Shown: positions 45,001 to 48,000 of the stretch, in pieces
Layout: the number at the start of each line of letters is the position of its first letter
How positions within the stretch are numbered: position 1 is the stretch's first letter
Assembly: GCA_048498835.1 (NCBI GenBank)
Contig: JBEHXF010000007.1
Coordinates: 1-55,015 of the forward strand
Reading direction: 5' to 3'
DNA from: Chlamydiota bacterium
GTDB taxonomy: Bacteria; Chlamydiota; Chlamydiia; Chlamydiales; SM23-39
DNA: 55,015 bases
Position numbers: made by a program

Positions 45001-48000
45001 CCATAGCATACGAGGCCACCTCATTTCGATCAGTGAGGACTGTATGTTCCACATCATGAAATTGCGTTGCTTGTTCAATACAAATGGTCCGATCTACATC
45101 GACCATGATGTTGGCGCCCAGTTTTTGGAGAAAGAGGATCAGATCGATGATTTCTGGTTCGATGGCGGCATTTTTAATGAGGGTAGTTCCTTTTGCGCGG
45201 ACAGCTGCCAAGATGGTGTTCTCCGTTGCGCCAACAGAAGGATAACTCAATGTGATCACTGCTCCATTGAGACCCTGATGGGCTTGCGCAAAATAAGCGC
45301 CCTCTTTTTTCATCTCTCGGTATTCGATGCGAGCGCCGAGTTTTTGTAGAGCATGGATATGGAGATCGACCGGGCGTGTACCAATGAGGTCTCCGCCGAT
45401 GGTTGGGACAATGATGTCTTGGTCGGTGCGGCCGAGAAGAGCTCCGATCATGAGGATGGGGATTCGGTTGGATCCAGAATAGCGTTGTGGGACGTAGGTA
45501 GTTTTGAGTTCGTGGGTGACGATTTCAAGCGTTTTCGCTTTTTTATCCCAGTTCACTTCGGAACCAATTTCGCGGCATAAATTCACTGTAATTTCAACAT
45601 CACCGATGTTAGGTACATTGAAAAAAGTGCATTTACGATCGGAAAGAAGGGATGCGACTAACAATTTAGTCATTGCGTTTTTGGCGCCAGCGGCACGAAT
45701 CTGCCCGAGAAGCGGCTTTCCGCCGCGGATTTTTAACACTTCCATGCTCCTAGTCTAAACAAAGTCGAATTTTAATTCGATTTTTCTCAAAAAAATCCTC
45801 TGGATACAGATATAGAACTCTATGGTATACTAGAGCCGAAAGAAATTTATGCAGACGCAATTTCCGATCTTTCGTACCGGGATTGGCCAAGCCAGTCACC
45901 GTTTTCTTCCTTCTGATTCATCTAAGCCTTGCTTAGTGGGTGGGATCATTTTTGATAATGTTCCCGGCCTTGACGCTGAATCCGATGGAGATGTGGTCTA
46001 TCACGCGATTTGTAATGCCATCAGTTCTTTAACAGGCGTCCCAATTCTAGCGGGAATTGCAAGCGATCTTTGCCGCTTGGATGGAATAACCGATTCTCAA
46101 GTCTACGTGGAGCGGGCAGTCGAAACGCTGGAAAAACAAAAAATTGTCCATTTAGCGATGACGATCGAAGGAAAGAGACCCAAACTTGACGATCGGGTTG
46201 AAGCGATGCGCAAAAAAATTGCTCATGTTTTAGGTCTTCGTCTTCAACAGGTTGGCCTAACCATCACCTCTGGCGATGGATTGACCGACTTCGGCTGTGG
46301 TGACGGATTGCAGTGCTTCGCGATCCTTACAACTTTGGAAGAATAGAATTTCGCTGAAGAAGCGACAGGAAATCAATCACAGAGTTACACAGAGATAAAG
46401 AAGAGTTTCGCAGAGAAAAAATATAGATTGATTATATCTCTGTGTAACTCTGTGGTTATTTTTAATAGACGTCTTGAAGGTAGCGCTTCTGTTGGCGCAG
46501 GGTTTTTAGCCAGGCCCGAGCGTCTTCTTCAATGAGCGAACCTTGGTCTTTGGCGATTTGAATCAGGGTGAGTTCTACATCTTTAGCCATTTTTTCAGCG
46601 TCGCCACAGACGTAAATGTAAGCTCCGTTTTGGATCCAATCAAAGAGCGAAGCCCGTTGTTCCCATAGTCGATGCTGCACATAGATTTTTTCGTTCTGAT
46701 CGCGCGAGAAAGCGAGATCAAGACGAAGCCTGTCTTGCCTTTCTAATTCAAGAAAAAAATCGGCATAGTAAAAGTCAGTGGCCTGGTTTCGCTCTCCAAA
46801 AAAGAGCCAATTACTGCCTGAATGTTGCAGAGCCAGCCGCTCTTGTAAAAAAGCGCGGAAGGGGGCGACACCGGTTCCTGGACCAATGAGGATGATCGAG
46901 GCATTGGGATCGGATGGTAGAGTGAAGCCATTGGCGGGTTGTACATAGATCGGAATAGGAGTCTTTTCTATCTCTGCTGTCTGGCAGAGGAAATGGCTGC
47001 CAACGCCATAGCGGGGTTCTCCACGTACTTGATAGGAGAGAGAGGCTACGGTGAGATGGATTTCCTCTGGATACATGGTAGGAGAAGAGGCGATGGAGTA
47101 AAAACGGGGCATCAGAGGAAGAAGTGAGGCCAGATCTTGCGCAGAGAGATGAGCGCCAGGAAAGGCGATGAGTAGGTCTGCGAGGTGATGCGTCTGGAGA
47201 ACTTCTGACAGTTTGGCTTTATTCTCTGCAATCAGAAGAGTGTCAAGTCCTGTCGCTCCTTTATCTTTCATCATTTTGAGAAAGGTGGATGTGCATTTTG
47301 CGAGATTGGCTTTATGTAAGAGAAAGTCAAAAATTGTCAGGGTTGTATTTGAGCGAGAATCAAAGAAGGGTTCGGCTCCCGTCAGTTTTAAAATTTTAAG
47401 AATAGAGCGGACGAGTGGTTGATGATTGATTGGGTAAATCCCGATGCTGTCGCCGACTTGGAAGGGAATTTGTGCAGAGAGTTCAATGTGGTAGGTCTCT
47501 TTGCTCGAGCCGGCCTGATTGAGCAGAAACCTTTTTTTGATCTTGGCACTGTAAGGATTGGTGCGGCTGTAGATTGACAAGTTCAAGAGGCTCTGTTTAG
47601 AGTGTGTAAAACGAGGCAGCTATTTATGAAGTCCATCATGTGGTCGATTCTTATTTTGAGTCTAGTAGGTTGCAGCAACTCTGGCTATCATCCATGCTAT
47701 GTCATCACAAAATCGCCCATCGACGAGCTTGCACCCGTCGATGAGGAAGAAGCTATGCCGTCGCAGGAATTGCAGTAAAGAGAGCTTTGCAATCTTTCTT
47801 TTCCCATCCCTTTTTCAGCTGATCGAGCTTTTTGTTAGAGATGCCGCCGAGCATTTCAATTGCTTGCATCAGGCGGACGCGAGTCCTATCCTTGCCAAGG
47901 AGAGTCACAGAATCGAATAAAGGTGGGCCTTGGTGTTTGCCCATGATGGCGGCAAAGAGGGGATAGATCACAATCTTTTTGTGGTGTACGCCAAATCTCT

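Follow-up and report, generated by a model that had tools for sequence, protein, structure and literature searches.

The window, a stretch of 55,015 nucleotides from the genome of an environmental chlamydia (family SM23-39), contains a homologue of ispF within a gene arrangement that is conserved in this family (Table 1). As the preliminary description of this DNA had stated, ispF lies beside the gene of a CysJ-like flavoprotein. Its reading frame is intact and its product passes both family cut-offs, scoring 104.5 bits against Pfam YgbB (PF02542; cut-off 26.7; model positions 1-153 of 155) and 125.3 bits against TIGR00151 (cut-off 116.45). Moreover, 30 PDB sequences of solved IspFs align with nearly its whole length at E values up to 0.001, the best being 2e-13. 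By Pfam and NCBIfam, the window protein is thus a full-length member of the YgbB/IspF family, like the canonical enzymes of E. coli and M. smegmatis (2UZH).

Table 1. Positions of ispF, its neighbours and the TLC/NTT-family genes of the same genome
Feature	Position	Strand	Description
ispF (orphan MEcPP synthase homologue)	45849..46346	+	165 aa, stop-free ORF; Pfam and NCBIfam matches
CysJ-like NADPH flavoprotein	46462..47586	-	374 aa; FAD_binding_1 and NAD_binding_1; convergent with ispF, 115-bp gap
murA (EPSP_synthase family)	44345..45745	-	divergent from ispF; conserved murA / ispF / cysJ-like / gltX arrangement
gltX (glutamyl-tRNA synthetase)	47753..49294	-	flank of the murA / ispF / cysJ-like / gltX arrangement
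Canonical TLC/NTT-family nucleotide transporter paralogue	32452..34014	-	ORF; not the dxs-site TLC
dxs-site TLC/NTT-family gene	G000:C12:43594-45129 (outside the window)		PF03219, 257 bits; beside nadK

The window protein departs from these canonical enzymes at the metal site. In M. smegmatis IspF, zinc is held by Asp11, His13 and His45 (PMC2151065). The alignments with PDB sequences place Ala15 and His17 of the window protein on the D-x-H motif and His52 on the third ligand, so that both His are kept, Asp is replaced by Ala at position 15 and the Asp-His-His site is incomplete. Such a replacement would be expected to abolish zinc binding or catalysis. Alignments at about 25-30% identity, from which the pocket and cavity residues were mapped, put Glu where E. 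coli has His34, and Glu107 and Cys150 onto the hydrophobic central cavity and its Arg142 aperture. In a gapless alignment with the H. influenzae enzyme, Asp143 lies opposite Glu135 of E. coli, a ligand of the second cation, but it does not in the M. smegmatis alignment. This position is D or E in 58/58 relatives that have the MEP pathway, and the three commonest residues listed for 35 orphan IspFs are D (27), E (3) and N (3). Unlike the canonical enzymes, the window protein also stands outside its pathway: its genome holds neither the source of its substrate (IspD and IspE) nor the user of its product (IspG).

The flavoprotein encoded next to ispF aligns with the cysJ model, which is 597 positions long, from 227 to 597 only, and hence has no flavodoxin domain. 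Its score of 367.8 bits falls below the cysJ equivalog cut-off of 668.15, which places it outside CysJ proper. The adjacency pointed out in the preliminary description is widespread, the CysJ-like gene adjoining IspF on the opposite strand at 70/96 family IspF loci (murA is next to IspF at 62/96). However, the two genes converge and therefore do not form an operon. The CysJ-like neighbour is found at 43/61 loci with the pathway and at 27/35 without it; retained as often in the one group as in the other, it says little about IspF. We also considered the flavoprotein as a dedicated reductase of IspG and IspH, and rejected this role on account of its equal retention in genomes without the pathway.

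The genome of the window (G000) is a metagenome-assembled genome of 88 contigs, 96.9% complete. Six-frame searches that were positive in control genomes gave no match above cut-off in G000 for Dxs, Dxr, IspE, IspG or IspH. The same held for any other GHMP kinase, HMG-CoA reductase and IPP isomerase (IDI) of types 1 and 2; TIGR02150 had no match, and the best score for TIGR02151 was 20.6 bits against a cut-off of 281.3. These searches reproduce what had first been reported, namely that five MEP enzymes are absent from the DNA and that a genome with no GHMP kinase has no mevalonate route. The IspH profile likewise found nothing in G000 but was positive in one of five congeners and in 63/102 other family genomes, exactly as described before. 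GcpE, DXP_reductoisom and GHMP_kinases_N gave strong matches only in the congener G005 (E 5.4e-115, 2.5e-9 for a fragment, and 1.7e-17), and DXP_synthase_N was strong in G005 alone among the congeners (E 9.5e-105). Of the two weak DXP_synthase_N matches in G000, one is a transketolase (TIGR00232, 767 bits) and the other a fused PDH E1 alpha/beta. The sole IspD call of G000 is indeed not a true IspD. It is a 441-aa ORF that joins an IspD/ribitol-5-P cytidylyltransferase-like N-terminus to an SDR C-terminus, and G005 holds a true IspD plus a fragment of this IspD-like/SDR paralogue (49.6% versus 30.6% identity). Another congener, G004, was considered as a holder of IspD, IspE and IspF and was discarded, as its extra GHMP kinase is HddA-like and adjoins an HddC-like gene, and its IspD-like gene is an orthologue of the SDR fusion.

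Loss of the pathway extends well beyond this genome. Both IspG and IspH are absent from 37/103 family genomes, and in 35 of these no IspE match reaches the cut-off either; in G031, IspG and IspH are gone and IspE is kept. On an RpoB tree, which is a single-gene tree from a quick search, presence and absence of the pathway are scattered and require 19 changes, at least nine of them forced by well-supported branches. It had been proposed that the loss happened inside the genus. One of the five congeners does retain the pathway, but these counts do not fit a single event at the genus level. A review from 2026 on the diversity of isoprenoid pathways in bacteria (PMC13001223) has no occurrence of 'chlamydi' and makes no mention of MEP-pathway loss in chlamydiae. 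The terms isoprenoid, MEP and mevalonate do not occur in two chlamydial pangenome papers, and literature searches on the topic were equally empty. Patchy, repeated loss among close relatives amounts to a natural experiment in which a biosynthetic pathway may have been traded for a transporter.

The sites of the missing genes can be traced by comparison with G005, since the genes that flank its MEP genes have orthologues of 65-93% identity in G000. At the IspD site, the gap has closed and the flanks lie 68 bp apart on contig C34; a DUF2442/DUF4160 pair occupies the IspE site (C14), and a 508-aa ORF without a Pfam match occupies the IspG site (C21). No credible remnant of IspE, IspG or IspH was found in the matching gaps by tblastn with G005 queries at E values up to 100 (best E 1.3, 0.057 and 1.3). 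In G000, the Dxs site lies at one end of contig C49 and the IspH site at the other, and for these two genes the absence comes from the searches; no overlap joins the end of C12 to the start of C49, which would close the dxs site. Bins often lose short contigs, and an assembly in 88 pieces with two of the sites at contig ends might suggest that the MEP genes are present in the organism and missing from the bin, but such an artefact is extremely improbable, because unbroken contigs span the IspD, IspE and IspG sites without those genes, IspE, IspG and IspH are jointly missing from 35 family genomes, and four relatives have the dxs site spanned with another gene in it. The view already expressed, that the absences are unlikely to be assembly noise, is strengthened accordingly.

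The enzymes that consume IPP remain in G000, as had been noted. Matches above cut-off were found for PF00348 (polyprenyl_synt, 119.2 bits), PF01255 (UppS, 266.8 bits), PF01715 (MiaA, 261.8 bits) and two UbiA prenyltransferases (PF01040, 223.4 and 108.1 bits). Because these consumers of IPP and DMAPP persist and no route to make their substrates is left, the precursors or longer prenyl diphosphates would have to come from the host. The core of the original reading (no MEP or mevalonate route, consumers retained, IspF an orphan) thus stands, and synteny now adds to it. We consider it highly probable that G000 is unable to make IPP and DMAPP, its MEP genes having been deleted or replaced in place with neither a mevalonate route nor an IPP isomerase to compensate, and that this condition has emerged or been passed on repeatedly in the family.

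Host-isoprenoid dependence is established for Rickettsia and also described for Orientia, with a transporter postulated (Driscoll et al., 2017, PMC5615194; Ahyong et al., 2019, PMC6854040). As described there, those obligate intracellular bacteria share with G000 the absence of both the MEP and the mevalonate routes and the retention of UppS and other IPP users. They differ in that most Rickettsia have Idi, with which imported IPP can be turned into DMAPP, and G000 does not, whereas G000 keeps a polyprenyl_synt-family synthase and Rickettsia is described as being without IspA. Moreover, G000 is a chlamydia and not an alphaproteobacterium, and it combines an orphan IspF with recurrent loss among close relatives and a candidate carrier at the dxs site. 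Ahyong et al. (2019) argued that bacteria living in vacuoles retain the pathway since host IPP is out of their reach; according to the same authors, it is still uncertain which molecules transport IPP, and a bacterial carrier has not yet been identified.

The preliminary description had identified no transporter, a statement that no longer holds in that form: a divergent TLC-family gene, which we regard as a candidate only, lies at the dxs site and tracks pathway loss. The gene order in G005 is xseA-xseB-dxs-nadK, and in G000 the TLC gene is found beside nadK. The gene is contiguous between xseB and nadK in four relatives (G001, G003, G004 and G017). Between the sister species G003 and G005, homologous DNA breaks off where xseB ends and sets in again where nadK begins, the segment between them being TLC in G003 and dxs in G005. 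Among 80 nadK loci, 50 have dxs without TLC, 18 have TLC (one with a 50-aa dxs remnant), nine have neither dxs nor a TLC in its place, and none has both TLC and an intact dxs.

The product of this gene, of about 455 aa, is a polytopic membrane protein of the TLC type, covering positions 26-488 of the 491-position Pfam TLC model with at least 10 hydrophobic segments (Kyte-Doolittle). It shares this domain with the TLC/NTT transporters of chlamydiae, rickettsiae and plastids (Npt1/Npt2, PamNTT1-5, Tlc1-5). In contrast to these, it scores 228.6 bits against TIGR00769, the model of NTP/NDP exchange transporters, which is below the cut-off of 387.2; a type B relative reaches 250.4 bits and a canonical paralogue 546.7. 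The dxs-site TLCs form one clade (SH-aLRT 100) apart from the canonical paralogues, of which the same genome has three. Of 48 columns conserved in both groups, nine have become fixed for another residue in this clade, among them a change of Lys to Glu. The TLC gene of the window belongs to the canonical group: by tblastn it is 73% identical to one canonical paralogue in G005, and its identity to the dxs-site TLC is 30%.

We searched for the dxs-site clade in 16/103 family genomes and found it only where the MEP pathway is gone: in 10/10 genomes without the pathway, G000 counted, and in 0/6 with it. The best identity to the dxs-site TLC was 43-73% in all nine other pathway-less genomes, and 31-34%, which is paralogue level, in all six that have the pathway. 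Three of these contrasts fall within single genera (g1, g51 and g53), and in two genomes (G101 and G032) the clade member is located away from the dxs site. There are hints of lateral spread. Forcing the five TLCs of genus g1 into one clade lowers the log-likelihood by 33.3 (AU test, p 0.0275), which is weak evidence as the group was chosen once a first tree had been seen.

On these grounds, the dxs-site gene is our leading candidate for the importer of isoprenoid diphosphates that had been missing. That it encodes the carrier which made the pathway dispensable, by moving host IPP, DMAPP or a related diphosphate across the inner membrane, is a tentative proposal to which we would give slightly less than an even chance. 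For the transport of such highly charged compounds, there is now one candidate gene, standing in the place of dxs and found in all pathway-less and no pathway-positive relatives tested. It can be tested directly with the uptake assays that are standard for the TLC/NTT family.

A different role for this gene has to be weighed seriously, even if we find it somewhat less likely than not. The protein could be an ordinary carrier of nucleotides, NAD or a cofactor that landed or hitch-hiked at a deletion-prone site, isoprenoid precursors entering by another route. DXP is also a precursor for thiamine and pyridoxal synthesis in many bacteria. Thiamine diphosphate would be one such cargo. Another would be NAD, imported as by PamNTT4 to feed NadK, and the TLC gene does adjoin nadK. 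According to PMC5381601, every characterised NTT transports nucleotides or NAD, and PamNTT4 likewise falls outside the canonical clade; Tlc2 and Tlc3 of Rickettsia are described as still without a known substrate (PMC5615194). The nine loci that lost dxs and have no TLC at the site also fit an ordinary carrier. However, nadK is the ancestral neighbour of dxs, as the 50 intact loci indicate, and its adjacency to TLC is thus inherited. Relatives with the pathway need NAD and nucleotides too, and yet lack the clade. An ordinary carrier would not readily account for the strict division between the pathway-less and pathway-positive genomes searched, three within-genus contrasts included, nor for its persistence where TLC lies elsewhere and the failure of TLC to occur with an intact dxs at any of the 80 loci.

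The importer proposal can be carried further, to a version that we regard as unlikely. The TLC clade would then be the first molecularly identified IPP/DMAPP importer and a one-gene cassette that passes between related chlamydiae. By recombining into the space that separates xseB from nadK, it would inactivate dxs and at one stroke make a prototroph an auxotroph that depends on its host. The orphan IspF, no longer needed for catalysis, would remain as a trimer without zinc, and by binding a small phosphorylated compound (a cytidine nucleotide or else a prenyl diphosphate) it would serve as sensor or buffer. If true, such a cassette would account for the repeated loss of the pathway in the family.

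IspF has outlasted its pathway across the family. It is present in 35/37 pathway-less and 61/66 other genomes; the pathway-less exceptions, G003 and G070, show that the gene is dispensable. The earlier statement that IspF survives is correct as to its retention, but the survivor is not unaltered, as the Asp to Ala change in the window already indicates. The zinc triad is D-H-H in 60/60 readable IspFs from genomes with the pathway, whereas a ligand is substituted in 14/35 orphans and the triad kept in 21/35. On the RpoB tree, the substitutions have at least six origins, and His was replaced by Arg at least three times; the residues that replace Asp at position 15 are varied (A, S, N and E). Among 30 positions conserved to at least 97% in IspFs with the pathway, only 15, 17, 43, 44 and 158 loosen in orphans, and 9/35 orphans are fully canonical at these five. 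The residues aligned to the CDP pocket (S45, D46, G47, D48, P111 and G142) and to the trimer-axis cavity stay invariant. A paired phylogenetic test of zinc-site change against pathway loss gave the same direction in two to four of eight pairs and never the opposite, with little power (sign test p 0.125-0.5). A rough alternative, which assumes equal rates, yields 3e-4: pathway-less branches make up 0.26 of the tree length, and this fraction is multiplied by itself once for each of the six origins (0.26 to the power of six).

The orphan IspFs nevertheless remain under purifying selection. No stop or frameshift was found in the 35 orphan genes, which come from many separate lineages. For unsaturated pairs, dN/dS of IspF is 0.036-0.088 without the pathway and 0.021-0.113 with it (dS is saturated in 5/9 pathway-less pairs and about half of all pairs), and it is 0.050 for a pathway-less pair in which both members carry N-R-H. 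As purifying selection goes together with substituted zinc ligands, a second, zinc-independent role of IspF appears most likely. Constraint would have been relaxed only at the zinc site itself and at a handful of positions near it, with the rest of the protein held invariant, and the orphan may be a ligand-binding or scaffolding pseudo-enzyme. We judge it probable that the orphan IspF is not a decaying relic, and that selection keeps a role which needs neither the MEP pathway nor, in G000, the catalytic zinc. Pathway loss, a selected orphan IspF and a TLC importer at the dxs site, taken together as one explanation, are moderately likely. Such a second function may be shared by chlamydiae whose pathway is complete, among them pathogens in which MEP is discussed as a drug target.

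Two other accounts of the orphan are, in our view, improbable. The first regards it as a functionless relic awaiting deletion, the lost zinc ligands being the first signs of decay. Such losses are indeed confined to pathway-less genomes, two of which have lost IspF altogether, and IspF diverges somewhat faster relative to RpoB there (distance ratio 4.0-5.6 for pathway-less pairs, 0.9-4.6 for the others). However, decay would not be expected to leave every orphan frame open, dN/dS within the range of pathway-positive pairs, 25 of the 30 most conserved positions intact and IspF about as frequent as in genomes with the pathway, while IspD, IspE and IspG have left no trace in G000. The second account, similarly improbable, makes the orphan an enzyme acting on another cytidine-diphosphate-linked or cyclic-phosphate substrate, Arg in place of His supplying the positive charge of the zinc. 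The invariant CDP-pocket residues and the recurrent change of His to Arg would agree with it, as would another CDP-alcohol that G000 appears to make through its IspD-like/SDR fusion. Yet G000 itself kept His17 and has no Arg there, and the assorted residues at position 15 do not point to a single new chemistry. Nor do the two genes always travel together, since G003 has the IspD-like/SDR gene without IspF and G001 the reverse.

The selected, zinc-independent orphan that we favour has a partial counterpart in Listeria, whose MEP pathway ends at MEcPP and for which non-isoprenoid roles of what remains have been proposed (PMC13001223). In both cases IspF is kept without IspG/IspH function. As described in that review, Listeria has Dxs through IspF, and can make MEcPP, as well as a mevalonate route, whereas in G000 IspF stands alone, with no source of substrate and an altered zinc site.

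Six-frame profile searches, which were positive in named control genomes, returned nothing over cut-off in G000, the genome with the window as its contig C7 (1.97 Mb, 88 contigs, completeness 96.9%, contamination 2.4%), for IspH (best 11.8 bits), IspG, Dxr, GHMP kinases, HMG-CoA reductase or type 1 IDI, and the best type 2 IDI match scored 20.6 bits against a cut-off of 281.3. Together with the sites of IspD, IspE and IspG, which lack those genes, this bears out the preliminary description, in which both the MEP and the mevalonate routes were said to be absent. Every genome compared here is a MAG. 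Among the five congeners, only G005 codes for IspH, IspG, Dxs, a Dxr fragment, IspE and IspD, in agreement with the earlier view that four of the five share the loss. The flanks of these genes in G005, whose G000 orthologues are 65-93% identical, were used to locate each site in G000. On contig C34, 68 bp separate the two flanks of IspD. The IspE site is a gap of about 690 bp filled by a DUF2442/DUF4160 pair, and the IspG site is filled by a 508-aa ORF that matches no Pfam family. Remnants of the lost genes were not detected in the matching G000 gaps. The flanks of IspH and Dxs lie at opposite ends of contig C49, and the absence of these two genes is read solely from the genome-wide search. 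For IspD, IspE and IspG, at least, a gap in the assembly does not account for the absence.

Several genes of the genus resemble pathway enzymes. The two weak DXP_synthase_N matches of G000 had been taken for transketolase-like proteins; this holds for one of them, a transketolase (TIGR00232, 767 bits), while the other is a fused pyruvate dehydrogenase E1 alpha/beta. The fusion is a single 688-aa ORF, which matches TIGR03181 in its N-terminal half (252 bits) and NF006667 in its C-terminal half (299 bits). In the 441-aa product of the sole IspD-domain gene of G000, an IspD/ribitol-5-phosphate cytidylyltransferase-like domain is fused to a short-chain dehydrogenase (SDR). Since a true IspD (30.6% identity to the G000 protein) exists separately in G005, besides a fragment of the IspD-like/SDR paralogue (49.6%), the fusion is not the IspD of the pathway, as had already been argued, and its domains would suit a CDP-ribitol synthase of the Bcs1/TarIJ type. 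Among the other congeners, this gene is present in G002 and G003, lacks the SDR part in G004 and was not found in G001. Likewise, the lone GHMP kinase formerly seen in a congener without the pathway is an HddA-like heptose kinase of G004, which adjoins an HddC-like guanylyltransferase. On the other hand, the consumers of IPP are indeed kept in G000, as had been reported: one polyprenyl_synt-family synthase, UppS, MiaA and two UbiA-family prenyltransferases score over cut-off in open frames. With no IDI, we infer that the cell would need an external supply of IPP and DMAPP, or of longer prenyl diphosphates and IPP.

The loss had been placed inside the genus. However, across 103 genomes of the family, IspH was found in 63, IspG in 61 and an IspE match (E up to 1e-8) in 64, and both IspG and IspH are missing from 37 genomes (hereafter pathway-less, with orphan IspFs; genomes with IspG and/or IspH are called pathway-positive). 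These 37 are scattered over an RpoB species tree of 92 genomes, from which 6 genomes without an RpoB match are missing and 5 were dropped for fewer than 450 residues covered. The pathway-less state requires 19 changes on this tree, a count that is soft because the tree is a single-gene quick search, and well-supported branches (SH-aLRT 95 or higher) impose at least nine of them. Within the window's genus, the pathway-positive G005 is sister to the pathway-less G003, and G000 is sister to G001, with support of 99 each. The RpoB genes of three genomes (G011, G020 and G021; loci L220-L222) contain many in-frame stops, mostly TGA. These look like long-read indel error and not biology, given that the assemblies consist of few, very long contigs and yet have low completeness scores.

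Among the 37 pathway-less genomes, a GHMP match below threshold (55.5 bits) was seen in G086, and a full IspE is present only in G031 (205.8 bits; 96% complete), whose IspF carries the canonical zinc triad. This genome may hold a Listeria-like partial pathway, or may be a recent or incompletely assembled case. As described in a section of a review on bacterial isoprenoid pathways, the partial pathway of Listeria runs up to MEcPP with all the enzymes to make it (PMC13001223). In Chlamydia trachomatis, metabolites generated by IspE have been reported to release the histone-like Hc1 from DNA (Grieshaber 2004, as cited in a passage of PMC6818789); pathway-less chlamydiae cannot synthesize such intermediates. 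Dependence on host isoprenoids is described in passages on Rickettsia and Orientia (PMC5615194, PMC6854040) and on Mollicutes (PMC13001223), and one passage of PMC6854040 postulates a transporter and calls the molecular identities of such transporters uncertain. No account of chlamydiae that have lost the MEP pathway turned up in the literature covered, outside of which lie supplements and subscription journals; 'chlamydi' is absent from the 2026 review (PMC13001223), and isoprenoid, terpenoid, MEP and mevalonate do not occur in the main text of the chlamydial pangenome papers examined.

The new result of this study is a transporter in place of dxs. In G005 the gene order is xseA-xseB-dxs-nadK. 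In G000, a divergent carrier gene of the TLC/NTT family lies beside nadK on contig C12; contig C49 starts 33 bp from xseB, and the ends of C12 and C49 do not overlap. This TLC gene is contiguous between xseB and nadK in the congeners G001, G003 and G004 and in G017, from elsewhere in the family, and abuts nadK in G002 and G038. G003 and G005 are sister species; their DNA is about 75% similar up to the end of xseB and again from the start of nadK, and the interval comprises 1,396 bp with the TLC gene in G003 versus 1,898 bp with dxs in G005. The orientation of the gene differs in G003. The best identity to the G000 protein is 69-73% in G001-G004 and 32% in G005; it is 71, 70, 64, 51 and 43% in pathway-less genomes of five other genera, and 31-34% in five pathway-positive genomes (94-98% complete), against a background of 26-34% for canonical paralogues. 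Altogether, in the 16 of 103 family genomes covered by this search, the dxs-site clade is present in 10/10 pathway-less genomes (including G000) and 0/6 pathway-positive ones, with concordant contrasts in three genera (g1, the window's own, g51 and g53).

A survey of 80 chlamydial nadK loci with 6-kb flanks, some from the same genomes so that counts overlap, gave a similar picture. At 50 loci there is dxs without such a TLC gene. At 18, a TLC gene of the dxs-site kind adjoins nadK, ten being 60-76% and eight 40-43% identical to the G000 protein; in one of these (L273), a dxs remnant of about 50 residues (4140-4526) lies between the TLC gene and nadK. Intact dxs and TLC occur together at none of the 80 loci. 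At nine, xseB directly abuts nadK (L340 has a 30% paralogue 2 kb beyond), and three are cut by contig ends. In locus L291 (4259-6007), dxs is split over two frames (175 and 321 aligned residues), possibly a pseudogene or a sequencing error.

Phylogenetic analysis of 56 TLC sequences groups every dxs-site TLC in a single clade (SH-aLRT 100) with two subclades, both apart from the canonical paralogues. They score below the NCBIfam cut-off for NTP/NDP exchangers, and 9 of 48 jointly conserved columns set them apart from the canonical paralogues. The TLC-family genes of G000 number four, on contigs C7, C12, C59 and C72, three of them canonical, including one in the window. Public data hold at least 120 protein clusters with 63-100% identity to the dxs-site TLC, and the automatic names, if any, are ATP:ADP antiporters or Npt1/Npt2-family. 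When one gene takes over the conserved position of another and is then found where the whole pathway of that other gene is absent, this is a classic sign of functional substitution, and a carrier can stand in for a biosynthetic pathway only if it imports the product. Based on this displacement and tracking, the dxs-site clade is the best candidate importer of host IPP/DMAPP or related diphosphates, a role to which we give a little less than an even chance; the preliminary description had identified no transporter. The main rival, a substantial but lesser possibility, is that these proteins carry nucleotides or NAD and are unrelated to isoprenoids, as nucleotides or NAD are the substrates of all characterised NTTs, with NAD that of the divergent PamNTT4, according to a passage of PMC5381601. 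However, nadK is an inherited neighbour of dxs, pathway-positive relatives also need NAD and yet lack this TLC gene, and in two genomes the association with pathway loss holds even though the gene lies elsewhere than at the dxs site. As for the spread of the candidate importer, lateral transfer of a TLC cassette by flank recombination fits, but is not proven by, three observations: the loss is scattered over the species tree, the gene is oriented differently in G003, and one TLC clade for genus g1 is weakly rejected (p-AU 0.0275, for a group chosen once a first tree had been seen).

IspF is retained in 96 of the 103 family genomes (35/37 pathway-less and 61/66 others), and all 96 genes were extracted and aligned. 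By its profile matches, the window IspF is a full-length member of the family. In alignments to the PMC2151065 chain and three other solved IspFs, its Ala15, His17 and His52 occupy the zinc-ligand positions. The triad is D-H-H in 60/60 readable IspFs of pathway-positive genomes, one further gene being cut by a contig end, versus 21/35 orphans. The other 14 read A-H-H (one, G000), S-R-H (two), D-R-H (one), E-H-H (two), A-R-H (two), N-R-H (four), E-L-H (one) and N-H-H (one). The four congeners that retain IspF each carry a different lesion, and IspF was not found in G003. Altered triads arose at least six times on the RpoB tree, with His to Arg at least three times. As pathway-less lineages make up 0.26 of the tree length, six origins there would occur by chance with a probability of roughly 3e-4 if equal rates are assumed. 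A relatedness-aware paired test gave the expected direction in 2-4 of 8 pairs and the opposite in none (p 0.125-0.5), short of significance.

Despite these changes, the orphan IspF is not decaying. None of the 35 genes contains stops, and IspF dN/dS in unsaturated pathway-less pairs is 0.036 (G017/G018), 0.050 (G040/G041, both N-R-H), 0.086 (G092/G085) and 0.088 (G000/G002), compared with 0.021-0.113 in the estimable pathway-positive pairs; synonymous change is saturated in 5/9 pathway-less and 5/10 pathway-positive pairs. As a multiple of the RpoB distance, the distance between IspF proteins is 4.0-5.6 for six pathway-less pairs; a seventh pair gives 16.6 and an eighth no defined value, versus 0.9-4.6 for twelve pathway-positive pairs. 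Of 30 positions at least 97% conserved in pathway-positive IspFs, 25 are kept at 94-100% in orphans. The loosened ones are 15 (63% canonical), 17 (71%), 43 (77%), 44 (aligned with E. coli His34; 46%) and 158 (69%), and 9/35 orphans are canonical at all five. His52 and the residues aligned with the CDP pocket (S45, D46, G47, D48, P111 and G142) are invariant in orphans, and E107, D147 and C150, aligned with the central cavity and aperture, are each kept in 35/35. The central cavity of E. coli IspF binds IPP, GPP and FPP (PMC2151065). The mapping of residues to pocket and cavity comes from low-identity alignments and is a lead, not a result. Our reading is that IspF probably has a second role in these chlamydiae, which would outlive the pathway and not need zinc.

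Features at the loci discussed (positions without a prefix are in the window)
Feature	Position	Strand	Description
Canonical TLC/NTT nucleotide transporter paralogue	32452-34014	-	520-aa ORF; 73% identity to canonical G005 paralogue, 30% to dxs-site TLC
Methyltransf_24 ORF	42910-43683	+	26.9 bits
Methyltransf_24 ORF	43694-44350	+	53.6 bits
murA	44345..45745	-	flank of ispF/CysJ-like pair
ispF	45849..46346	+	165-aa uninterrupted ORF; YgbB 104.5 bits, profile positions 1-153/155; TIGR00151 125.3 bits, cut-off 116.45
CysJ-like FAD/NAD(P) protein	46462..47586	-	374-aa ORF; convergent with ispF, 115 bp between
gltX	47753..49294	-	flank of ispF/CysJ-like pair
dxs-site TLC	G000:C12:43594-45129		beside nadK; PF03219 257 bits; called 455 aa; at least 10 hydrophobic segments
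DUF2442/DUF4160 pair (IspE site)	G000:C14:12454-12994 (L239)		81.3 and 64.6 bits
IspD-like/SDR fusion	G000:C15:29864-31186 (L023:1471-2793)		TIGR00453 190.3 vs 181.3; NF001183 169 vs 166
508-aa ORF (IspG site)	G000:C21:13688-15235 (L238)		
Fused pyruvate dehydrogenase E1 alpha + beta	G000:C32:17636-19699 (L012:1066-3129)		
HddA-like kinase and HddC-like guanylyltransferase	G004:C13:8405-10146 (L015)		

In the window, we recovered both the IspF and the neighbouring CysJ-like ORFs with their domains, as the preliminary description had them. The match of the CysJ-like ORF to the cysJ model is confined to positions 227-597 of 597 and scores 367.8 bits, below the cut-off of 668.15. The ORF has FAD and NAD(P) domains; Pfam and NCBIfam profiles found no flavodoxin part of CysJ in it. 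Its convergent orientation rules out a shared transcript with ispF. In the family, the gene adjoins IspF on the opposite strand at 70/96 loci, 43/61 of the pathway-positive and 27/35 of the pathway-less ones, and thus says little about IspF. Its retention without IspG and IspH argues against a dedicated reductase of these two enzymes. Just upstream of murA, on the opposite strand, two Methyltransf_24 ORFs with hydrophobic N-termini lie side by side.
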